From the NCBI GenBank assembly GCA_903889895.1, contig CAISYZ010000121.1:1143-65142 (forward strand): 64,000 bases of DNA. Reading direction: 5' to 3'. Under the pieces are notes generated by a model that worked only from the letters and a program-made list of their open reading frames with translations, was not told where the DNA came from and did no database searches. The stretch's first letter is position 1. Each line of letters opens with the position of its first letter. The translations under genes and the position numbers were made by a program. Positions 2,419-53,754 of this stretch are shown here, in pieces. This DNA comes from an uncultured Verrucomicrobia subdivision 3 bacterium. GTDB lineage: Bacteria > Verrucomicrobiota > Verrucomicrobiia > Limisphaerales > UBA11358.

Positions 2419-4143
2419 TTAAGTTTCGCCATATCCCTCTTCGGCGGCGGCTTGCTGTGCCCTTAGAATGTCGTGGAGCGTCAGAATTCCCATCAGCGGT
2501 TCATCCGCTTGTTCCTGGAGCAAAAGAAATCCAGTCTTGGATTCAATCAATTGCATTTCCACATCGCGCAAAGACAATTCCGGGCGGCAAACCGTGGCTT
2601 CCACCAAGACAGGCGGACGCTTTTCCCGGATTGCCAGCGTGGCTTCTTCCCGTGTCAGGACGCCGCGAATTTGTCCGTCAACCACCACCGGGAACTGGGT
2701 GTAAGGGTGGTTTTGGAGCAGGTGTTGAATTTGTTTCAACTCTAGCGAAGGGACAATCACGGGCTTGGGGTTGGCCAAGTGCGAGATCGGCTGCTTCTGC
2801 CATTCCCGCAGATCGCGGGGTGGCGCGAAGCGTTCCACGGCATGACCGTCTTGTTCCAACAGTGCGTCGTAAAAATTATGCCGCGCCAGACGCCGGCTGA
2901 TGGCCTGGCTGACTAATGCCGCCAACATCAACGGTGGCACCAGGGCAAATTGATGCGTCATTTCAAACACAATTAAAATGCTGGTCACCGGCGCACGCAC
3001 CACCGCGCCCAAGGTTGCGCTCATGCTGACGATGGTGAGCATGGCCACACCTTCCGGTGACAATCCAAAAACCGGCTGAAGAATGCCCGCGATGCCCAAC
3101 CCGGTCATGGCACCGAAGAATAATGTCGGCGAAAAAATACCGCCACATCCGCCCATGCCGTAACAGGCCACGGTGGCCACAAATTTTGCCGCCAGCAGCA
3201 GCGCCGCCGTCTGCCAGATTAATTTGCCGGTGAGCGCCTCGGACAAATCATCGTAACCCAAGCCAAACACGCCGAGCTTGCCGGTATAGCGAAAGACCGC
3301 CACGCCCAGCACCCAGCAAATCAAGGCACCGATGGCAGGTCGCAGCCACGCTGGAACTGCGCTTAATTTCTTTTGGCGGGCGCGCAGCCCGAGCGCCGAT
3401 TTTTGAAATGCCACGCCCACGAGCGTTCCTACCGCCGCCACCACCGGCACCAGCAAATAGGAATACCACGAGGGTTCGCCGATCGCCGCGAGTGAAAACG
3501 AAGGCTGCGGCCCGATGATGCCATGCGCCACCAGCGCGCCAATCATGGCACCGAGCAGCACGCTGCCGAGCAGACGGCTGTTCAAGTCGCCAATCAATTC
3601 CTCCAAAACAAACGTGACGCCGGCCAGCGGTGTGTTGAAGGCGGCGGCCAGACCGGCGGCGGCACCGGTGGCGGCGGCCAGTCGGCGTTTTTGTTTGGGT
3701 TCACCTGCCACGCCCGCCAGCAGTGAGCCGGCTGTGCCTGCCAGTTGCACACATGGACCTTCGCGGCCCAGGCTGCTGCCGCCGCCGATTTGCAGCGTGC
3801 CCGCGAGAAATTTCACCCACAGGACGCGGAAGGGCACAAAGCCGAAATTTTTCCAGAATGCCGCCTTCAACTGCGGAATGCCGCTGCCGGCGGCCTCCGT
3901 GCAAAACGAATTGAGCAGCCAGCCGGAAATCAATGACGTCCCAACAATCAGCCCCAAGCTGCTCCACAGAAAGGTGGTGAACGAACATTGCGAAAGCCGC
4001 ACGATGCCGGCACGATAACAGCCGTTCAAGGCCAGCTGAAAGGCCACCGCCACCAGTCCGGCCACAAAGCCATACGCGCACGTTTTGAGAATCGTGCGCG
4101 GTCGTTCCGGCAATTTTGCCAGCCATTCAACCAAAAATTTCAC
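2419..4143 (-). CDS. ClC-family chloride channel / H+/Cl- antiporter with two C-terminal CBS domains
   Basis: ClC signatures GSGIP, GREGP and GGIFSP, many TM helices, and a CBS pair at the C-terminus. Confidence 0.93.
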   Translation of the reverse strand: MKFLVEWLAKLPERPRTILKTCAYGFVAGLVAVAFQLALNGCYRAGIVRLSQCSFTTFLWSSLGLIVGTSLISGWLLNSFCTEAAGSGIPQLKAAFWKNFGFVPFRVLWVKFLAGTLQIGGGSSLGREGPCVQLAGTAGSLLAGVAGEPKQKRRLAAATGAAAGLAAAFNTPLAGVTFVLEELIGDLNSRLLGSVLLGAMIGALVAHGIIGPQPSFSLAAIGEPSWYSYLLVPVVAAVGTLVGVAFQKSALGLRARQKKLSAVPAWLRPAIGALICWVLGVAVFRYTGKLGVFGLGYDDLSEALTGKLIWQTAALLLAAKFVATVACYGMGGCGGIFSPTLFFGAMTGLGIAGILQPVFGLSPEGVAMLTIVSMSATLGAVVRAPVTSILIVFEMTHQFALVPPLMLAALVSQAISRRLARHNFYDALLEQDGHAVERFAPPRDLREWQKQPISHLANPKPVIVPSLELKQIQHLLQNHPYTQFPVVVDGQIRGVLTREEATLAIREKRPPVLVEATVCRPELSLRDVEMQLIESKTGFLLLQEQADEPLMGILTLHDILRAQQAAAEEGYGET

Positions 4144-5544: not shown

Positions 5545-6627
5545 TTATTTCCCAGCCTTTTCCCTGTTGTGCTCTTTGCAAAGCATCTCGCAATTTTCAG
5601 GAATGGTCTTGCCGCCATCGTGCCACGGTTTTTTATGGTCGCCTTCCATTTCCTCAAACTTCCATTTCTTTTTTTCTTTGCACTTTGGACAAATTCCCTT
5701 TTGCCTTTCCCATGCCTCACGCTTTTGCTTGTCAGTAAAGGCACGAATGTTCAGGAACTTTTCCTTCCCATTTAGGACATAGGTGTAAATGCCTTTCTTG
5801 TTCGTCACATCCTCATCTTCCATCAACGTTGAGATTCTCTTTTCCAGCTTCTCAGGGTCAGGTTTTTCGTCCTTGTGCACATTGTAGAGACGGCCAAAGG
5901 GCACGCCCTTCATTTCACTACGATACTCTGGAAAGATAGTTTTGACCCATTTGATGACCACTTGAAAATACTGCCACAATTCTTTGGCGTCCTTGTGATC
6001 CTGATGGTCGGACATGTAGCCCTTGATGTCCCCGTTGGAAATCCAGTCAATAACCGTTTCTAAAAATTCCTGTCGAATCGCGACGCCGCTGAGATAGTCG
6101 TCGCCTAACTTTGGGCGATTAGCTTTGGAGAAATACCTTTTAGCATCCGTAACCCATGTCCCTGAGTAAACCGCATTTTTCAATTCTTGGGGTGTCAATT
6201 CTTCGCCAGAAATGTTGATTGTCTCGAACCAGTCCAACCGTTCGCTGTCCGTTCCTGAGCACAGATAAATCGTTAACTTGTAGTCCAAAATCTGTTTCTG
6301 CTCGTCGCCTTGAAGGTTGTGGAACTTCAGACCCTTAATCGAAAAATCCTTGTTCACATACCTACATATCGAAACTGTGCGTTGCTGCCCGTCAATAATC
6401 TCAAAATTGCCATCTGCGCGCACTGACCAATACATGACATTCAAGGGATAGTCCTGTCTGACGGTGTTGATAACAGCGTCTCGCTGCTTGTCCTTGTAAA
6501 TGAACTCGCGCTGATAGGGCGGGCGGATGTCGAGTTTGCCCCCGTAACCGCGAACGCCCTCTTCCTGCTTGTCCTCGTAACCCTTTGTCAGTTCGCGAAT
6601 AGTCAGTTGTAATGGCTGGATTTTCAT
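5545..6627 (-). CDS. DUF262 (GmrS/ParB-like) plus C-terminal HNH endonuclease; putative restriction enzyme
   Basis: DUF262 motifs PPYQREFIY, IIDGQQRT and FETIN; HNH/Zn motif CPKC...EGDHKKPWHDGGKT...NCEMLCKEHN. Start overlaps the MTase stop (ATGA). Lower GC than the flanks. Confidence 0.9.
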   Translation of the reverse strand: MKIQPLQLTIRELTKGYEDKQEEGVRGYGGKLDIRPPYQREFIYKDKQRDAVINTVRQDYPLNVMYWSVRADGNFEIIDGQQRTVSICRYVNKDFSIKGLKFHNLQGDEQKQILDYKLTIYLCSGTDSERLDWFETINISGEELTPQELKNAVYSGTWVTDAKRYFSKANRPKLGDDYLSGVAIRQEFLETVIDWISNGDIKGYMSDHQDHKDAKELWQYFQVVIKWVKTIFPEYRSEMKGVPFGRLYNVHKDEKPDPEKLEKRISTLMEDEDVTNKKGIYTYVLNGKEKFLNIRAFTDKQKREAWERQKGICPKCKEKKKWKFEEMEGDHKKPWHDGGKTIPENCEMLCKEHNREKAGK

Positions 6628-7625
6628 TTTGGTCGTTCTGGATTTTTGTTTCGGATGAATAGGCGTTTGAAAGTTTCCTTGCCATTCAGATAAGAGCCAC
6701 GCCCATAAACCCCGTTCGGGTCTTGATCAACACCACGGTTGCAACCGAGAATCTCGAATTGTTCGGGGTTATACCTATCGAGAAATGTCACGGGCACGCC
6801 CATCACACCGTCGTAGTCAATCGGAATGTCCGCAGTTTTTGACACTTCAATTGCGTCGTAGTTGTCATATTTCGGATAATCTTTGCGATTGTAATTTTTA
6901 AACAAAATCAAATCCTCGTGACGCTTCTTGTTATCAATGTTCGTGAACCAGCAAGTTGTGTTCGTGGAAATGACTCGTTGCCCATTCTCCATACGAGCCT
7001 CAGTCCCACTCAAAGGGTAATGCTCGGGGACGATGAATCCTGAAAAATTGCGGTTACTGTTTACACCAATCCAAAGCTTGTTTTCCTTAATCAGCTTGAA
7101 AACTTCTATGTAGGTTATCACGTTCCAACTGCCGACAATTAGGAATTTCTTCTTGTGCGCCGCAAGTTGCGAAACATATTCCCTGAACAACGAAAAGGGC
7201 GGGTTGGTAACAACAATGTCGGATTGCTTAAGCAACTCAATGCACTCTTGGCTGCGAAAATCTCCGTCGCCCTTCAATTGTTTAATGTCCTTGTCCTTAT
7301 ACTTTGGAACGTTGCCGCCTTCGTCGCCGGTGTATTCCAAGTAAATTGCCCGTTCAACTTTGTGGCGGCTGAACAAATCCGCATCTTGATTCTTGTAGCA
7401 GGTCGTTATCAGTTTCTTCAAACCCAACTCCGCAAAGTTGTATGAAAAATAGTGGAAGAAATTACTTTTGCGAGGGTCGTCACAATTGCAAAACACGGTT
7501 TTCTTTTTGAAGTGCTTAACGTAGTGCGTCAGTTCTCTTTCGATGTCGGCAAGGATCGTGTAGAACTCGTCGTTCTTATCGCTTTTCGCCTTGTTCAAAA
7601 GCTTGTTGGTTGCGTTTCTTGCCAT
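6624..7625 (-). CDS. Adenine-specific DNA methyltransferase, EcoRI family
   Basis: N-terminus MARNATNKLLNKAKSDKNDEFYT...CNCDDP...SNFF closely resembles M.EcoRI; GDGDFRS and the catalytic TNPPFS are present. Confidence 0.93.
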   Translation of the reverse strand: MARNATNKLLNKAKSDKNDEFYTILADIERELTHYVKHFKKKTVFCNCDDPRKSNFFHYFSYNFAELGLKKLITTCYKNQDADLFSRHKVERAIYLEYTGDEGGNVPKYKDKDIKQLKGDGDFRSQECIELLKQSDIVVTNPPFSLFREYVSQLAAHKKKFLIVGSWNVITYIEVFKLIKENKLWIGVNSNRNFSGFIVPEHYPLSGTEARMENGQRVISTNTTCWFTNIDNKKRHEDLILFKNYNRKDYPKYDNYDAIEVSKTADIPIDYDGVMGVPVTFLDRYNPEQFEILGCNRGVDQDPNGVYGRGSYLNGKETFKRLFIRNKNPERPK

Positions 7626-7634
7626 TTTATTTGA

Positions 7635-8099
7635 TCAGTTAAAAAAATTATTTTCGCCGAAAATCCGTTCGAGCACAACCTTGACGTAGTGGCTGGCGTG
7701 CCAGTCGCAGTGGTAATAAAAGCTGCCGGTCTTTTTGAGGACGCGGGCGAGTTGCACGCAGCGCGGGCGCAGGTAGTCAATGTAAGCCCTGGTGTTCTCG
7801 TGGCGGTCTTCAAAGGCGCGCTTCTCCTTGGTCTCGCCCCAGACTGTGCCAGTCCGGCACGGACCGCCGCAATAAACCACGCGGGTGTCGAGGAGGCTGC
7901 CGGGCTTTGCCGGTTTGGTGGTGGTAGGGCGGCGTTGCTGCGCCGCCTTCCCTTCGCCCCGGCTGACCGGCAGGTCAGCCCTACCAGCGGAGGCTGGAGA
8001 AGTTTTCGCGCCGGAAAGCTTTTTGGCCATGCGCGGAAGTTTGCGCGGGAATATTTGCGGCGTCAATTCGGAGTTGGCCGGTTCGGCATTGTTCGGCAC
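7635..8099 (-). pseudogene. N-terminal remnant of an N6/N4 DNA methyltransferase lacking its catalytic DPP(F/Y) segment
   Basis: DTRVVYCG is followed almost directly by WGETKEKRAFEDRH...LARVLKKTGSFYYHCDWHASHYVKVVLERIFGENNF*. The expected D(L/V)IYIDPPF stretch is missing and the gene stops where the EcoRI-like cassette starts. Likely start MAKKL near 8030. Confidence 0.75.
7923..7985. repeat. GTAG-type REP doublet (REPIN-like), 63 bp, inserted in frame
   Basis: Outer inverted arms GGTAGGGC...GCCCTACC with two internal hairpins (ggcggcg-ttgctg-cgccgcc and ggctgacc-ggca-ggtcagcc). Confidence 0.7.
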
Positions 8100-8219: not shown

Positions 8220-8534
8220 ATTTCCCAATATATAGATGGCATTTCCCAAACCTTCGGCGTCGTTCCGCAATATTGCGACACGGTTTCGCAACCTTGGGAA
8301 ATGATTTCCCAATATTGGGAAATCATTTTGAGATATTGCGAAAGGCCGCCAACCCCTTGGGTTGGCAACTTTAACCTTAAAAACCAACCTTCCCCACCCT
8401 GCCCCGGCTCTCCGCAATATTGCGAAATCATTTCGCAATATTGGGAAATGGTTTTGTAACCTTGGGAAATCGTTTCCCAAGGTTGGGAAATGCCGCCGAG
8501 ATATTGCGCCGCGACTTCGTTAGTTTGGGAAACT
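8220..8534. repeat. Tandem array of 21-bp units (15 positions in phase), consensus ATTTCSCAATATTGSGAAAT+1; each unit a 20-bp palindrome
   Basis: Units read directly: 8262 gttccgcaatattgcgacacg, 8283 gtttcgcaaccttgggaaatg, 8304 atttcccaatattgggaaatc, 8409 tctccgcaatattgcgaaatc, 8430 atttcgcaatattgggaaatg, 8472 gtttcccaaggttgggaaatg. Phase is kept across a degenerate 63-bp middle (8346-8408). Confidence 0.92.
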
Positions 8535-8692
8535 CCAGCCACGGACCGCCCCGCCCCGGTCAATTTTTCGGATTTTTTTTAGCGGCGTTAATCCACTTCA
8601 TCAGTATAAGTTATTATAATCAGTTGGTATGACTTAAGCTTATGTCCCACCGTCGGTAAAAAATAATAACAAACGAACAGAAAGAAAAAATC

Positions 8693-9313
8693 ATGATCAT
8701 TAAACCGGCCATTTCATGGCTTAACACAGACTCGGATTCCGAGCTGATCAACGACATCACCGTGGTCATCCTCGGTGTGGGCGGCAACCCGGCCATCTAC
8801 AGCAAACCCACGCCAGACATCCCCTCCATCCAGCTCGCGCTGAATAATTTCAGCACGGGCGTGGCGGCAACCGCGGATGGCGGACCCTCGGTCACGTCCA
8901 AGAAAAACAACCTGCGACTCATTGTCACCGGCATGGTGCGCCAGCTTGCGGGCTATGTGCAGACGGCTTGCGGCGGTGACATGACGAACCTGCTGTTGAG
9001 CGGGTTCCCGGTGCAAAAGCCCACGCGCGCGCCCATCGGCGTGTTGGCTGCGCCTAGCAATCCGGTGCTGGCGCTCGGCACCCGCAGCGGCGAACTGGAT
9101 GCGAGCGTCAACCCGGTGTTTGGGGCCTCTACCTACAACTGGAAGCTCACCAGCAGCGTCGCCGGTGCACCGGTGCTGACGGAGCAGACCACGGCCTCGT
9201 ATGTCACCTTTGCCAGTCTCACGCCAGGTGCGACCTTTACGATGACGTGCTACGTGGTGGGTGCCGCCGGCCCGAGCGATTGGAGCAAGGCTGTCAGCCA
9301 GATGGCGGTGTAA
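8693..9313 (+). CDS. Uncharacterised protein: N-terminal helical domain plus C-terminal fibronectin type III-like domain, no signal peptide
   Basis: 206 aa with a purine-rich RBS region. The C-terminal GELDASVNPVFGASTY...LTPGATF...VGAAGPSDWS is FN3-like. Homologous by eye to 50298..51020. Confidence 0.85.
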   Translation: MIIKPAISWLNTDSDSELINDITVVILGVGGNPAIYSKPTPDIPSIQLALNNFSTGVAATADGGPSVTSKKNNLRLIVTGMVRQLAGYVQTACGGDMTNLLLSGFPVQKPTRAPIGVLAAPSNPVLALGTRSGELDASVNPVFGASTYNWKLTSSVAGAPVLTEQTTASYVTFASLTPGATFTMTCYVVGAAGPSDWSKAVSQMAV

Positions 9314-9347: not shown

Positions 9348-9385
9348 GGGCGCGTCGGGATTGGATCCGACGCGCCTTTGATTTG
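9348..9385 (+). terminator. Probable intrinsic terminator
   Basis: GC stem ggcgcgtcgg...ccgacgcgcc followed by tttgattt, just after the 9313 stop. Confidence 0.6.
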
Positions 9386-49889: not shown

Positions 49890-50174
49890 TTACGACCCCT
49901 TGAGCGCCTGCAACATCAGATCCGACTGCGCGCCGACCGACTGCACCTCAGCCTGCGTCAGCGGATCCGCGTCGGAGATGTTCAGCGGACTCATCGTCGA
50001 GAGTTGATTATCCAGCGCATCCCAGCGCGCCTGGTGCGCGGCCAGTTGCGCCTGCAACGCGGTCACCTGACTTTGCAGCGCGGTGTTCTGGTCGTTCAAG
50101 GCGTTGAACTGGTTGCGTAATTCCGCCGCCACGATGGGCGCATTGTTCACGGGTAAAGATGGATTGAAAGCCAT
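49890..50174 (-). CDS. Small coiled-coil hypothetical protein, downstream of and co-oriented with the FN3 gene
   Basis: 94 aa: MAFNPSLPVNNAPIVAAELRNQFNAL, a heptad stretch, then DPLTQAEVQ. Confidence 0.75.
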   Translation of the reverse strand: MAFNPSLPVNNAPIVAAELRNQFNALNDQNTALQSQVTALQAQLAAHQARWDALDNQLSTMSPLNISDADPLTQAEVQSVGAQSDLMLQALKGS

Positions 50175-50297: not shown

Positions 50298-51020
50298 TTA
50301 GGGGACGATCTTCGAGATTTCGCTGCTGAAGTTGCCTTCGCCGCCCGTGCCGATGGCGCGCACGCGCACCCAGATGCGCGCCCCGCTGGTGAAGCCCGGC
50401 AACACCGCCGACGACTTCGTCACGCTCTTGGTCTTGGACCAGCTCGTCGCCGTGAAGGGATCGGGGCTGGTTTGCACCTCGTAGGTTTTGGCGCCGGGCA
50501 CCGGGTCCCATTGCGCATTCAGTTCCCCGTCGTGGTCGCCTGCCGTCACTGCCAGGTTCATCACCTGCGGCGGCACACCCGCCGGCGTCTTGTTGGCGCG
50601 CGAACTGAAATTCGCGCTTTGGATGGTCGCCACCGGATCGGCCGCGCTGGCGGCCGTGAGTTCCACATAATTGCCGCGCTGGGTGAGCGCCGATTCCAGC
50701 GCCGCCCGCGCGGTGTCTTTGTTGGTGGTGGCCAGCTTGGCCGCCGCCTGCGCCGTGTTGAAGGTCCCCAGCGCGGCAGCGTAAGCCGCCCGCACGGACG
50801 TGAATTCCGTCACGGGCGGCAACGGCGTGGTGAAGTTGGGGTTGCCCGTCATCGCCGTCTCGTGCCCCTCCGCGAACGGCAGCAGGTCGTTGTCCGTTTT
50901 ATTGAATAGGTCCAGTTTGACTTTCGCTTTTTTCATGATGTTGAACAGTTGCGGCGGCACCGGGTCGGCGTAAGTCAGCCCGCTGTCATACGTCGAGGAG
51001 GGGTCATCATAGTCGGCCAC
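50298..51020 (-). CDS. Uncharacterised protein: N-terminal helical domain plus C-terminal FN3 domain, no signal peptide (homologue of 8693..9313)
   Basis: GNPNFTTPLP, GNYVE and GELNAQWDPVPGAKTYEVQ...WVRVRAIGTGGEGNFS. Start is either GTG 51020 or ATG 50936. Confidence 0.85.
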   Translation of the reverse strand: MADYDDPSSTYDSGLTYADPVPPQLFNIMKKAKVKLDLFNKTDNDLLPFAEGHETAMTGNPNFTTPLPPVTEFTSVRAAYAAALGTFNTAQAAAKLATTNKDTARAALESALTQRGNYVELTAASAADPVATIQSANFSSRANKTPAGVPPQVMNLAVTAGDHDGELNAQWDPVPGAKTYEVQTSPDPFTATSWSKTKSVTKSSAVLPGFTSGARIWVRVRAIGTGGEGNFSSEISKIVP

Positions 51021-51203
51021 GGCTCTGCCTTTGGTTTAGGTTTATTATGTTTGTTTTCGCTGGCAGGGCAAACCGGCTGGCTTGCTGGGAATGGCGGCGC
51101 CGCAGCGTCGCCCTGCCTTCCCGTTCCCGCTGTCCAATAAACCACGATTCCCCCGCCCGGCCTATTGCTCAATTCGGGAAAAATTGCAATCGGGTCAGGA
51201 CCA

Positions 51204-51518
51204 GGTGGTGCCGCCTCCAAGCCGGCCGGAGGAGATGCAACCCGAAGGAAAATGACTTCTGCCCGAAGTTTAGTCGCTACAACCTTGAGTTTAGCCGTTA
51301 CAAAACTTTGTGCCGTAGCTACCGCTTCAAGTTTAGTAGCTACAAAACTTCGTGTAGTAACTACTGCTTTAAGTTTAGTAGCTACAATTCTTCGTGTAGT
51401 AACTACTAAACATTGTTTAGTAGCTACAACATCAAGTTTAGTAGCTTCAATATTTAGTTTAGTAGTCTCAATATTTAATATTGAAGTTTCAACATTTAAT
51501 ATTGAAGTCTCAAAAACG
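51204..51518. repeat. Tandem array of 21-bp units (12 clear, 51267-51518, plus about 3 degenerate), consensus AGTTTAGTAGCTACAAAACT+1; quasi-palindromic
   Basis: Units: 51267 agtttagtcgctacaaccttg, 51330 agtttagtagctacaaaactt, 51351 cgtgtagtaactactgcttta, 51372 agtttagtagctacaattctt, 51393 cgtgtagtaactactaaacat, 51435 agtttagtagcttcaatattt, 51477 aatattgaagtttcaacattt. Confidence 0.92.
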
Positions 51519-51639
51519 GCCAAAATGGCCAGAAAACCCGTTTTTTTGCCAATTTTGGTGAAAACTGAGGTTTCCGCCCTACCTGCCCTACGCCGCCCAC
51601 GGACGGATGGGGTCCCTTGACCCAGCGGGATAGCATCCG

Positions 51640-53754
51640 TCAGCCCAGCGTCTTGAGCCGGCGATCCAAATCTTTCCGGGTGATGAGGTCGATGACCTGC
51701 AAATGGTCGGGGTGCAGCCGGAAGAGCAGCCGGTAATCCGACCCGATCCGTTGCCGCATCACATTGGGCACGGCCTTGAGCCGGAGCGCGCCGACGAAAG
51801 CCGCCGGTTCGCCCGCCGCCAGCCGCCCCGCCATGATCATGGCGGCCCGGGCGACGGGACGCGGAAAACCCGCGAGCACCAGCTGAAACCCCTTGGGAAA
51901 CTCGATCAGCCGCACCGGGTGGACATCCACCGCATCCGGCGGCAGCAATAATTCGTCCTCGCGGTCCGGGGCTTCCGCCTCCTCGGGCGCCCCGGCGGCG
52001 GCGGCGTTTTGCTGCAGCGTTTCCAGGTGCGCGAGCGCCTGCTGCAAATCGCGCCGCAAATCATTCCGTTCGTGATGCCGTTCCTTGAGCGCTGATTTCA
52101 AGCCGTCCACTTTGCGCCGCAATTCCTTCAGGGCCGGCTCGTCCGCCGGATTGGGCGCAACGGGCGGCACGGGCTGGGCCGGGCCGGCGGCTTTCTGTTC
52201 CCGCCGGCTGATTTCCTTTTGCAGGCGCGCCAGGGATTCCTTGAGTTCCTGCACCTCCTGCGCCTTGGCGGCAAATTTCTGGCGGGTCGCGCGCAGTTCG
52301 GCCGATTCCTTTTTATGCGTATCCTCCGGTTCGGCAAAGCGCTGGTCGAACAGTTCCGCAATCGGGTCGTCCGGCGACAGGTTCAACTGGTCGCGCGTGC
52401 GCAGGATTTCCTCAAACACCCGGCTCGCCTGCTTTTGCGGCAGGATGGGGATGGCGCCGCGCCCGACGAGGATGCCCAGCGCGCGGAAGCGGGAATACAT
52501 CAGCGCGATGGCCGAACCCTCCAGCTCCGCCGGTTCGTCTTCTTTCAGGGCCTCGGTGGCGCTTTCATCCAGCAATTTGATCAGTTCCGCCGGGTCATCT
52601 TCGGCCAGCAACAGCGCCGCGCCCATGTAGATATCATCCGGCAACTTGACCGGGTCGGGATGAACTTTCACCAGCCGGCGGAGCGCGGCCTTGTGCCCGG
52701 CACGGGTGGCCAGGACCATGACCTGCTGCCACAATTCCTTGCGCTCCGGCGCGTAGCCGAGCAGTTCAAAGGCGGTGGCGGCCTGGTCGAACAGATTGCA
52801 GGCGGCGAGCCGCAAAAAATAAGCTTCCCGCAGCGCGGCGGGAATTTTTACGGGATCCAGGCGGGCCAGTTCATACGGCTCGATTTTTTCCAGCCGTTCG
52901 GCGGTCAGGTAATCCTCCAGTTTCGCGCAGAGCTCCTCATGCGTCACCCCGGCCACGTCGGAGGAATGGTGCAGCCGCGCCTCATCCTTGGCGATGCAGC
53001 AGTGCTTGTATTTTTTGCCGCTGCCGCAGGGGCAGCGTTCGTTGCGGCCCACGCGCGGCACGGCCCGCCGCATGGTCTGGCCTTCGGCCAGCGTCTGCTT
53101 GGGTTTTTCGCCCACGTAGTCCAGCATGGATTTCTGGTAACCCGCCAGGATCTGCGCGCTTAACTCCGGGGCACGCGCGTCGAAGTCCTGCCATTCCTTG
53201 GCCGACATGGAGGGAAACCGCTGCCGCAGCAACTGGATCAGCCCGGCATCTTGCGTCAGCCTCGCCAGCAGGCACACGAACGTAAAAATCTTCACCTCAT
53301 CGTCATCATGATTCTTTTGCTTCACCTGCCGGGCCACCGCCCGGACCAGCGGCATGAATTTATCCGGCAGCACGCCGCCACGATGATCCCGGCACCACGC
53401 CCACAGCAGATGCAGCGCCGCCGCCTCGCACCCCCGGTCCAGCCGCGTCGTCGTCAGCGCCGTGAGCAAGGGCTCCACGATGTCCCCGTGCATCCGCACC
53501 ACCACCCGGCCCATCCAGCCATAGTAGGGAAACATCATCGCACCGCCGGCCAGATGCCGCGCGTCCATCCGCCGGCCCGCGCCCGCCGCCGCCACGAACA
53601 CATACATGAACCACTTGAGATTCTTGGACGCCACCACCTCGGCCAGCAGTTCATCCAGCGCCGCGTCCTCCGCCGGCAGCAGCTTGATGGTCTGCTCCAC
53701 CACCGACAGTTGAAACTGGGTCTCCTCGATGAACTGGCTCAATTCAGGGCTCAT
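51640..53754 (-). CDS. SEC-C zinc-motif protein with helical repeats, a coiled coil and a C-terminal RelE/ParE-like domain
   Basis: [19 protein letters not shown]; coiled coil around aa 480-590; C-terminal [21 protein letters not shown]...[10 protein letters not shown] resembles the RelE/ParE fold. Confidence 0.75.

Follow-up and report, generated by a model that had tools for sequence, protein, structure and literature searches.

Strictly 21-bp-periodic arrays upstream of a helical+FN3 gene family in a freshwater Verrucomicrobia genome

An array and a gene in the window, and their second copy

We analysed a 64,000-nucleotide stretch (hereafter the window) of a freshwater Verrucomicrobia genome, in which a tandem array lies upstream of a gene for a 206-amino-acid protein. 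Array 1 (8220..8534, no strand assigned) consists of 15 phased 21-bp positions with the unit ATTTCSCAATATTGSGAAAT+1, the three units in the middle being degenerate. Re-reading bore out the register of 15 positions from 8220 described in the original prediction, along with its finer details: the unit at 8304 is a perfect palindrome (20/20), and the phase outlasts the degenerate middle, where three units (8346-8408) score 6/20 before the register returns at 8409. The unit at 8430 scores 18/20 and those at 8262 and 8472 score 16/20 each, and a repeat search returned overlapping palindromes. Tandem Repeats Finder detected the better halves only (8284-8343 and 8413-8491, both with period 21). With a peak lag-21 match of 0.52, array 1 is among the weaker arrays of its genome; it is well above chance expectation. 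Directly 3' of it lies a weak terminator-like hairpin with a T-run (8544..8561, + strand), a consensus match only. A restriction-modification islet adjoins the array.

The 206-aa gene (8693..9313, + strand), whose ATG lies 158 bp from the end of array 1 as had been noted, encodes a protein whose N-terminal half is helical and whose C-terminal half is FN3, and is followed by a terminator-like hairpin of 12 pairs, 9 of them G-C (9348..9377, + strand). Metatranscriptome contigs from four studies cover the gene at 100% identity, from 8663, 8668, 8678 and 8707 on. Array 1 was in no RNA contig of the four metatranscriptome runs, a contig gap that does not show an absent transcript.

Between the array and the gene lies a conserved candidate promoter, a new feature that the original prediction had missed. 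The sequence TGGTATGACTTAAGCT (8625..8640, + strand) resembles a sigma-54-type -24/-12 element; the sigma-54 consensus is TGGCAC-N5-TTGC, with the GG of the -24 element and the GC of the -12 element exactly 12 nt apart, and the same spacing is found here. This element lies 92 bp after array 1 and 53 nt before the ATG, and array 1 spans 92-406 bp upstream of its -24 part. Orthologues carry the form TGGCA(C/T)G-N4-TTGCT between array and ATG, with columns 80-99% conserved in a 54-locus consensus, and alignment A3 shows it as well. Of 80 metagenomic loci, 26 have an exact match to TGGYRY-N5-TTGCW on the strand of the gene and 53-128 nt ahead of it, as do 5/29 family loci from other genomes. The genome encodes RpoN (PF04552, one match, at C228) and about five sigma-54 activators, or bEBPs (PF00158, five strong matches). 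Sigma-54 promoters start transcription some 12 nt beyond the -12 GC; the RNA contigs from 8663, 8668 and 8678 begin 24-39 nt after it, and contig ends cannot fix a start.

The window had also been said to hold a second copy of array and homologous gene with another repeat sequence, and it does. Array 2 (51267..51513, no strand assigned) has about 12 21-bp units with a 42-bp super-period, AGTTTAGTAGCTACAAAACTT and CGTGTAGTAACTACTGCTTYA giving way to TCAATATTTAATATTGAAGTC at the distal end. Its gene (50298..51020, - strand) encodes a 240-aa helical+FN3 paralogue that matches the 206-aa protein with 26% identity over 160 aa (BLASTP E=1e-8). A sigma-70-like promoter match (TTGCCC-16-CATAAT; 51044..51071, - strand) lies between array 2 and this gene, and a terminator-like hairpin (51517..51531, - strand), again a consensus match only, lies between the array and an upstream 704-aa gene. 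Directly 3' of the paralogue is a 94-aa coiled-coil ORF (49890..50174, - strand); a 94-aa ORF occupies the equivalent position at two further loci, C48 and C96.

Arrays across the genome and their link to a gene family

We scanned the 4.1-Mb genome for arrays in 168-bp windows, requiring at least 55% self-match at lags from 5 to 49. This gave 55 arrays at lag 21, 57 at the harmonic lag 42 and 0-2 at each other lag. In all, the genome holds 55-68 arrays, array 1 being one among them, and every one has a period of 21 bp. Each comprises 5-21 contiguous units, and the unit sequence differs from array to array. The proposal that half-sites alternate every 10.5 bp fits array 1 but gives no general rule: the arrays have a W/S power of 0.109 at 10.5 bp and random 21-mers one of 0.117, and consensus palindromy, at a mean of 6.45/10 pairs versus 5.33 in random 21-mers, is modest or absent in many arrays. 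Phased A-tracts or bent DNA were dropped as an idea, since the W/S signal has no 10.5-bp periodicity. Several array copies lie at contig ends; arrays of this strict 21-bp kind disrupt short-read assemblies. A full-text search of the published literature returned no account of such arrays.

In the window's genome, 21 of the 68 arrays lie directly upstream of genes of the helical+FN3 family, which encode proteins of about 206-286 aa with the two-part architecture described above, and in 21/21 cases the gene is downstream of the array and reads away from it. That array and gene recur together, as anticipated from the two copies in the window, is seen in other species of the genus, where 17 of 26 loci have an upstream array (0/26 at eight control lags, 0/29 downstream). 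The same holds for metagenomic orthologue loci, 53 of 69 of which have a 21-bp array upstream; with the window's own locus the count is 54/70, against 0/70 at control lags and 0/51 downstream. At orthologue loci the gap from array to ATG has a median of 260 bp (range 122-494), and the upstream array is still present at orthologues with protein identity as low as 50%. The pairing is thus recurrent but not exclusive, as 47/68 arrays stand beside ordinary, housekeeping genes that are not family members.

The FN3 fold of the C-terminal half was recognized in a search of PDB profiles (1fnf, E=2.2e-8); Pfam fn3 falls below its cut-off for the window proteins and is precomputed for many orthologues. 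Searches of the family proteins against Pfam, NCBIfam, PADLOC, PHROGs and PDB profiles gave FN3 only and no DNA-binding domain, and the ESM Atlas gave unnamed or FN3 clusters only. Giant FN3-repeat proteins dominate the matches of a profile search against 1.84 billion representatives, which is no guide to the size of the family. It is unevenly distributed: genomes carry 0-21 copies, some of which have in-frame stops, and only 3/300 other genomes of the phylum were found to have the family. Neither a viral-contig scan nor a phage tblastn search returned viral or phage relatives. At genome level, arrays and family co-occur: family-positive genomes have array densities of 5 per 400 kb (G023), 1-2 per 400 kb (G053) and 55 in 4.1 Mb (G000), and three family-negative genomes (G048, G011 and G017) have 0 arrays at a match of at least 0.55 in 1.02 Mb, with one borderline match at 0.50, a co-occurrence that rests on five sampled genomes only.

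The orphan arrays occur in intergenic gaps whatever the orientation of the flanking genes. Convergent gaps hold 16/58 arrays, a larger share than the 77/485 for all gaps of at least 250 bp. The neighbours scanned were housekeeping, restriction-modification or unknown genes, with no integrase, transposase or ParA/ParB/Rep gene among them. At three arrays, an XRE-type gene reading towards the array ends 10-30 bp before it. XRE-Cys proteins were considered as general binders and set aside for the window's orthologue group, with 0 matches upstream of 53 of its metagenomic loci.

Constraint on the arrays and what might read them

Three options had been put forward for the arrays: a lattice for a binding protein, a long self-complementary RNA and a heptad peptide. 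Unit variability has no period-3 (z=-2.1; 3/47 arrays exceed their own 95th percentile), and mismatches on the gene strand of orthologue arrays are divided evenly between G.T (528) and A.C (534). In a set of 47 distinct consensus units from orthologues, complementarity holds in 327 of the 470 symmetric cells, compared with 237.3+-7.4 in shuffles (maximum 259), with up to 4 pair types per symmetric position. The earlier observation of C and G swapping together is not supported for changes within arrays, where compensatory double changes number 93 versus 91.1+-7.3 in shuffles; it finds support between orthologous arrays, whose half-sites change jointly. This joint change could be due to mutational palindrome correction as an alternative to selection. 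Because there is no codon periodicity, mismatches are strand-symmetric and half-sites change jointly, the arrays point to a site on double-stranded DNA that a dimeric protein would bind, and not to an RNA or a peptide. Of the three options, then, a protein-binding lattice on double-stranded DNA remains, and single-stranded RNA and peptide are disfavoured.

The idea that geometry is conserved over sequence agrees with what we found, namely that the period is kept while the unit sequence turns over. All that persists in the window's orthologue group is the 21-bp period, dyad symmetry and a loosely kept frame, TTTC-xxx-ATAT-xxx-GAAA. In two paralogous modules the flanking genes are 86% and 92% identical in DNA, but the arrays are without detectable similarity. 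Such rapid change would probably come about by slippage or unequal exchange, spreading a mutated unit through an array.

Array 1 is probably an oversized binding platform for a regulator of the gene. We read the lattice as an enhancer or operator because array 1 ends upstream of a conserved sigma-54 promoter, at the distance of 92 bp given above; tentatively, it could well be a much enlarged enhancer (UAS) or operator for a trans-acting regulator of the helical+FN3 gene. The array would then act in cis as a double-stranded DNA lattice of putative binding sites, and dyad-symmetric sites spaced at two helical turns (21 bp) would align dimers on one face of the DNA and favour cooperative binding. 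The regulator would most simply be a sigma-54 activator controlling the helical+FN3 gene. That a protein binds, which protein it would be and whether it would activate or repress are points that we infer. A second, unrelated case is an orphan array (in L088) with a perfect TTGGCACCGGCTTTGCT and a prepilin-type gene 280 bp beyond it. Orphan arrays as a group show no enrichment of the sigma-54 motif nearby, its pattern occurring in 5/40 orphan loci and being plausibly placed only in this one. The enhancer reading cannot account for every array, because no sigma-54 element was found, with up to two mismatches allowed, at copy 2 or at L002, L006 and L211. We also count against it that no activator gene adjoins the arrays (PF00158 genes were absent both from the window and from the surroundings of the arrays examined, the bEBP genes being on other contigs or far away), that most arrays stand beside housekeeping genes and convergent gaps have more than their share, that known enhancers have 2-5 sites and the arrays 10-20, that several arrays are non-palindromic, and that compensation within arrays shows no excess. 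Finally, 68 different unit sequences are too many for about five bEBPs to read specifically.

A more doubtful alternative, and the leading option of the original prediction, is that the helical+FN3 protein itself binds. Each paralogue would cover the array next to it, either to regulate itself or to form a lattice like that of a centromere, with the orphans as further landing sites. The family is the only gene consistently adjoining the arrays, and the two co-occur at genome level, a link that comes from only 5 sampled genomes. Whether the repeat tracks the protein phylogeny had been proposed as a check, and when run it gave a positive but ambiguous answer: unit similarity declines with protein identity (Mantel rho 0.22, reached by 0/500 permutations), which common descent alone would also give. 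Against direct binding, the profile searches detected FN3 only and no DNA-binding domain, about 25 paralogues face 68 arrays, and paralogues 92% identical in DNA have arrays without detectable similarity.

Just as doubtful, in our judgement, is a lineage-restricted system in which the helical+FN3 family or a co-occurring factor reads the 21-bp periodic geometry and not a fixed sequence. If this were true, any unit in the two-turn register would make a high-affinity lattice, which would explain why dozens of arrays of unrelated sequence coexist in family-carrying genomes and were not found in the family-negative samples. Quick birth, homogenisation and replacement of arrays would then be compatible with function as enhancers, insulators or chromosome-organising sites, and recognition of geometry alone would be a new principle of bacterial DNA recognition.

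A quite unlikely reading sees the arrays as minisatellites that serve little function or none, grown from a seed such as an operator by slippage and quasi-palindrome correction and riding with a mobile or fast-evolving cassette. Their rapid sequence turnover would suit such an origin, as would the array upstream of citrate synthase, which is missing at that position in all 27 other species (0/27; 26 with the full 1,500 bp) and marks a break in synteny. So would one array that its 99% identical units show to be recent, the occurrence of orphans in every gap orientation, and the patchy family, with its in-frame stops and its 3/300 genomes. A neutral process, however, does not account for a period that is invariably 21, with no case of 20 or 22, for the persistence of arrays at a bounded distance before orthologues that share as little as 50% protein identity, or for the retention of the sequence frame and dyad symmetry.

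We consider it improbable that a mobile element or cassette system uses the arrays for recognition or recombination, reading their structure and not their sequence in the manner of attC. Their insertion-like presence and absence, with the break in synteny, could be taken this way, and a conserved leader, AATTGGCTTTTTTTATACA, abuts four arrays, the unit of one differing from that of the other three. Two arrays stand in tandem beside a lost gene, and array 1 is beside a restriction-modification islet. Yet the neighbours scanned include no integrase or transposase, neither target-site duplications nor terminal repeats were identified at the arrays, viral or phage relatives were not found, and the arrays keep their orthologous positions even between deeply diverged relatives.

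Still less probable is that the arrays are transcribed into a structured RNA of tandem hairpins or a long self-complementary duplex. The units are self-complementary, the leader abutting four arrays is promoter-like and directed into them, XRE-type genes read towards three arrays, and a weak terminator-like site follows array 1. These features are set against the equal numbers of G.T and A.C mismatches on the gene strand, the absence of compensation within arrays, the many non-palindromic arrays and the exact 21-nt unit, which serves no RNA need. Rfam holds no family for the array, its only match being rox1 at 24.1 bits, far under the 58-bit gathering score.

A heptad-repeat peptide, for which 21 nt would give 7 codons and some frames give plausible a/d heptads ((AEEFGRL)n in G023, ISQYWEM in array 1), can practically be dismissed and was rejected, as unit variability lacks period-3, no single ORF spans array 1, array-spanning ORFs are mixed in strand relative to the gene (3 same, 3 opposite), and heptads arise in all six frames of any 21-bp repeat.

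Comparison with known systems

The arrays share with CRISPR and TIGR arrays short, partly palindromic repeats that sometimes have a leader. They are not CRISPR, as the original prediction had recognized, since their units abut and there are no spacers. PADLOC gave no match for proteins adjacent to the arrays, and their constraint is strand-symmetric, unlike that of an RNA.

REP/BIME and BOX-type repeats are likewise described as intergenic, palindromic and clustered, often at gene ends including convergent gaps (PMC3733652). The REP elements of a genome belong to one or a few sequence families and are variably spaced, whereas each of the arrays is unique and strictly 21-bp periodic.

The arrays also resemble plasmid centromeres and iterons in having tandem, helically phased and often palindromic repeats suited to a cooperative nucleoprotein lattice. 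Examples of these are F sopC (12 x 43 bp), R1 parC and the lambda ori iterons. Unlike them, the arrays are chromosomal, number 55-68 per genome, are associated with a promoter and with genes of a non-partition family, and have no ParA/ParB/Rep gene among the neighbours scanned.

For the reading of the arrays as enhancers or operators, the closest comparison is with bEBP-bound sigma-54 enhancers, such as the NtrC sites at glnAp2 and the PilR tandem sites before pilA. Like the arrays, these consist of dyad-symmetric, helically phased sites about 100-400 bp upstream of a -24/-12 promoter, on which dimers can oligomerise, and the orphan array in L088, with its sigma-54 promoter and prepilin-type gene downstream, adds to the likeness. 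Known bEBP enhancers have 2-5 sites of one conserved sequence per regulon, and their activator is often encoded nearby. The arrays differ in having 5-21 contiguous units in an exact, gapless 21-bp register, each array with its own sequence, with no adjacent activator gene and, in many cases, no nearby sigma-54 promoter.

Strict 21-bp autocorrelation is a simple signature for this class of loci in uncultured Verrucomicrobia. If the arrays are enhancers or operators, that signature would tie an uncharacterised, expressed protein family to sigma-54 control, and the arrays would represent regulatory DNA in which entire arrays of sites turn over in concert during evolution and helical phase and symmetry alone are retained. 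They would then be the largest and most regular bacterial enhancers or operators known to us.

The two arrays of the window and their surroundings

As the original prediction described, 21-bp units run in register from position 8220 (array 1, 8220-8534), the unit at 8304 forms a 20-bp palindrome without mismatch, phase is kept across three degenerate middle units and the array ends 158 bp before a 206-aa ORF (8693..9313). The units at 8262, 8283, 8409, 8430 and 8472 have palindrome scores of 14–18 of 20. Tandem Repeats Finder reported two better halves of the array (8284-8343 and 8413-8491, period 21), and a repeat search returned palindromes that overlap one another. The second copy is also real: array 2 (51267-51513), with a 42-bp super-period in addition to the period of 21, accompanies a 240-aa ORF on the minus strand (50298..51020) whose product is related to the 206-aa protein (E=1e-8, 26% identity).

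Immediately left of array 1 lies a minus-strand restriction-modification or defence islet (5545-8099): 5545..6627 codes for a GmrSD_N+HNH protein, 6624..7625 for an EcoRI-type adenine methyltransferase, and 7635..8099 for a truncated N6_N4 methylase fragment. The islet suggests that the neighborhood is variable and horizontally acquired. Reading towards array 2 on the minus strand is the gene for a 704-aa protein (51640-53754) that combines a SEC-C motif with a ParE-like toxin domain at its C-terminus, the latter below the Pfam cut-off; its SEC-C stretch gave weak PADLOC matches to PDC-S12 and E2-like.

A genome-wide class of arrays and a gene family

We scanned the source genome (a 4.14-Mb assembly of 260 contigs, 75.7% complete, with the window at 1143-65142 of contig C121) in 168-bp windows. 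At a self-match of at least 55%, there were 55 arrays at lag 21 and 57 at lag 42, and every other lag from 5 to 49 gave 0–2. Lowering the threshold to 50% produced 68 arrays at lag 21, with 1, 1, 4 and 5 at lags 20, 22, 24 and 18, respectively. Arrays span 113-452 bp, or 5–21 units, with limits that are sometimes set too wide, and the unit sequence is distinct for each array.

Arrays or family genes often lie 0–2.5 kb from contig ends (C48, C118, C96, C166, C159, C196 and C260), and one array is apparently divided between the end of C196 and the start of C159; the arrays seem to be points at which short-read assembly breaks. Identical copies of a 19-nt leader, AATTGGCTTTTTTTATACA, stand immediately 5' of four arrays (C2:24794, C96:830, C196:40831 and, on the minus strand, C196:7665), with a -35-like TTGACC/TTTGCC ahead of the leader. 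Three of these arrays have a common unit, the fourth a different one, and another species has a related leader (locus L033). On the minus strand of C196 (6960-7690), two unlike arrays stand in tandem: the leader precedes array A, array B comes next, and behind it is a ribosome-binding-site remnant resembling that before the family gene of C247, with no gene; this looks like a module minus its lost gene. In another genome, G023, an array in a divergent gap ahead of a signal-peptide gene (L183 14249-14490, on contig C1) consists of ~11 non-palindromic units that are 99% identical (GGCTGAGGAGTTCGGACGGTT), with one frame reading (AEEFGRL)n, and appears to be a very recent expansion.

A single-protein search found 11 paralogues in the source genome. 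Lag 21 was among the strongest autocorrelations upstream of 10 of them, the eleventh region being interrupted by a contig end. An iterated HMM extended the set to 25 ORFs of 206-338 aa, one superfamily with helical N-terminal and Ig/FN3-like C-terminal halves. The 206-aa protein has no counterpart of the Trp/Pro-rich N-terminal extension (for example MRIATWDSGDPEMYFDNPNLRWGSPSYLLEPGDPGY or ...TWN..G..W...) present in several paralogues (C70, C199, C257, C145, C96 and others). By six-frame search within 1.5 kb of each array, a family gene adjoins 21 of the 68 arrays, and in 21/21 cases it is downstream and points away from the array; at C25, the open frame extends back through the array and the homologous part begins past it.

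The pairing proposed from the window recurred upstream of homologues. Across 26 other species (one locus each, at least 440 bp upstream required), 17 of the 26 loci had a lag-21 array, with none at eight control lags and 0/29 downstream. A metagenome scan recovered 80 orthologue loci at 50–82% identity, and the DNA occurs in freshwater, lake and permafrost metagenomes. For 69 of these loci plus the window, each with at least 450 bp upstream, 54/70 reached 0.5 at lag 21 and 64/70 reached 0.45; control lags gave 0 and 7 at these thresholds, and downstream regions 0 and 2 of 51. Among orthologues, the median is 11 units per array and 260 bp (range 122-494) for the gap to the ATG.

Family members, with names such as 'Verrucomicrobiia bacterium', occur at E≤1e-8 in 34 of 61 genomes of the genus (a tally that includes the unpublished G073), with 0–21 copies each. 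Beyond the genus they are rare: among 300 other genomes of the phylum, 3 had the family, and one of these had 9 copies. In other species, many matches are interrupted by one or two in-frame stops (TAA, TAG or TGA). Judged from these genomes, the family is apparently gained, expanded and decaying fast. Family-positive genomes G023 and G053 had 5 arrays in 400 kb and 1–2 arrays, respectively, whereas no array reached 0.55 in 1.02 Mb of family-negative G048, G011 and G017, where a single borderline case scored 0.50; this suggests that arrays and family co-occur at the genome level (five sampled genomes).

The claim that array and gene form one unit held only in part: pairing upstream of the family is recurrent but not exclusive, as 47 of the 68 arrays lie elsewhere, with neither a family gene nor a family pseudogene in the surrounding 1.5 kb. 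Neighbors of these orphan arrays include genes for a Na/H exchanger, SIS protein, GT21 glycosyltransferase, MutY, OPT transporter, Band 7 protein, PurH, TatD, citrate synthase, class II tRNA synthetase, chromate transporter, RsmE and DnaJ. By rough gene calls, arrays are flanked by 18 divergent, 16 convergent and 24 tandem gene pairs (131, 77 and 277 for all gaps of at least 250 bp), and thus are not confined to promoter-upstream gaps.

Promoter, symmetry and proposed mechanism

Alignment of 54 orthologue loci revealed TGGCA(C/T)G-N4-TTGCT conserved in the final 130 nt before the ATG, which by consensus we take to be a sigma-54 -24/-12 element. The window version, TGGTATGACTTAAGCT (8625-8640), is the sole match in 64 kb to TGGYAY-N5-WWGCW; 0.79 matches are expected by chance, so position and conservation carry the promoter argument. 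At 26/80 metagenomic loci, the gene strand carries the stricter TGGYRY-N5-TTGCW 53-128 nt upstream of the gene, and the pattern also precedes 5/29 family genes from other genomes (L028, L036, L043, L044 and L051). Not every locus has the element: searches at copy 2, L002, L006 and L211 did not find it, and at copy 2 a sigma-70-like sequence stands between array and gene instead, with a terminator-like hairpin preceding the array. The source genome encodes rpoN and five strong matches to sigma-54 activators (bEBPs). An unrelated orphan array of ~13 units (L088 3010-3275 on C258, within the region 3010-3700; unit CATTCGGGGACCTCCCCAAGT) lies 280 bp upstream of a perfect TTGGCACCGGCTTTGCT sigma-54 element and a prepilin-type gene, whose product begins with the prepilin N-methylation motif MKQQTKKAFTLIELL. 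The 206-aa gene is expressed in nature: assembled metatranscriptome contigs from four studies cover it at 100% identity from 8663, 8668, 8678 and 8707, 5' ends compatible with a transcription start just past the -12 element.

Orthologous arrays share the frame (A/G)TTTC-xxx-ATAT-xxx-GAAA(T/C)-N, whose inner triplets vary between loci as symmetric pairs (CCA/TGG, GCC/GGC, GTG/CAC and GCA/TGC). Symmetric cells were complementary in 327 of 470 cases, compared with 237.3±7.4 in shuffles (maximum 259), and single positions had as many as four pair types; relatedness inflates these counts, yet five positions have three or more pair types. The joint change of C and G noted in the original prediction is supported between orthologous arrays but not within arrays, where compensating double changes showed no excess (93 versus 91.1±7.3 in shuffles). 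A constraint that is strand-symmetric and dyad-symmetric, with a two-turn period, is expected of a lattice of dimeric-protein sites on duplex DNA. Palindromy is weak or absent in many arrays. A general phased A-tract bend was rejected, W/S power at 10.5 bp equaling that of random 21-mers.

The best-supported mechanism for this locus, which we hold tentatively and at somewhat under even odds, is that array 1 serves as an enlarged enhancer or operator. A dimeric regulator would occupy roughly 12 phased dyad sites, 92-406 bp upstream of the sigma-54 promoter, cooperatively and along a single face of the helix, and would in turn control the helical+FN3 gene. The five bEBPs cannot read 68 different units specifically.

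Candidate binders, alternatives and known systems

The adjacent helical+FN3 protein, in which domain and profile searches recognized no DNA-binding domain, is a candidate binder, though an unlikely one. XRE regulators that have a C-terminal Cys motif are candidates for one branch of the family: all seven strong members in the source genome adjoin 21-bp arrays (C38, C190, C236, C247, C215, C132 and C25), and six of the seven genes point towards the array in the order XRE-array-gene, but none was found at the 53 metagenomic orthologue loci of the 206-aa gene.

Array sequence turns over quickly relative to that of flanking genes in the paralogous modules C215 and C132, where the upstream XRE genes are 86% identical over 432 nt and the family genes 92% over 721 nt; the arrays that separate these genes gave no blastn match and have only a loose GAA-n-TTC core in common. 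Unit similarity falls with protein identity, from 20.3 of 21 at ≥90% to 14.6 at 80–90%, 12.6 at 70–80% and about 11-11.7 below 70% (random 21-mers, 9.2). On the question, raised in the original prediction, whether unit consensus tracks protein phylogeny, the Mantel rho is 0.22 and was reached by 0/500 permutations.

Another array lies 500 bp 5' of the citrate synthase gene; it was not found in any of the 27 other species compared, 26 of which offered the full 1,500 bp, and synteny ends 167 bp before the gene. Next to this array, an 80-nt segment occurs in two copies (L096 228-308 and 561-641, on C250) that resemble the C-terminus of a prepilin-associated H-X9-DG type protein (...NVVFCDGHVES...) and are probably gene fragments at the synteny break.

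That the arrays are largely neutral minisatellites is improbable, and a mobile-element site is still less probable. A functional RNA ranks just below the latter, at a similarly low probability. A one-strand RNA hairpin should tolerate G.U and skew the mismatch counts, and at symmetric positions G.T and A.C were balanced both on the gene strand of orthologue arrays (528 versus 534) and in palindromic arrays of the source genome (234 versus 245); Rfam gave no match above threshold for the array. A heptad peptide is very improbable and was rejected: unit variability lacks codon periodicity (z-score -2.1; 3/47 arrays above their own 95th percentile) and no single ORF spans array 1.

In the abstracts returned by full-text literature searches, we found no published description of such arrays. 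The closest known systems are sigma-54 enhancers, plasmid centromeres and iterons, and REP/BIME clusters, from each of which the arrays described here differ in unit number, in strict register and in having one sequence per array.
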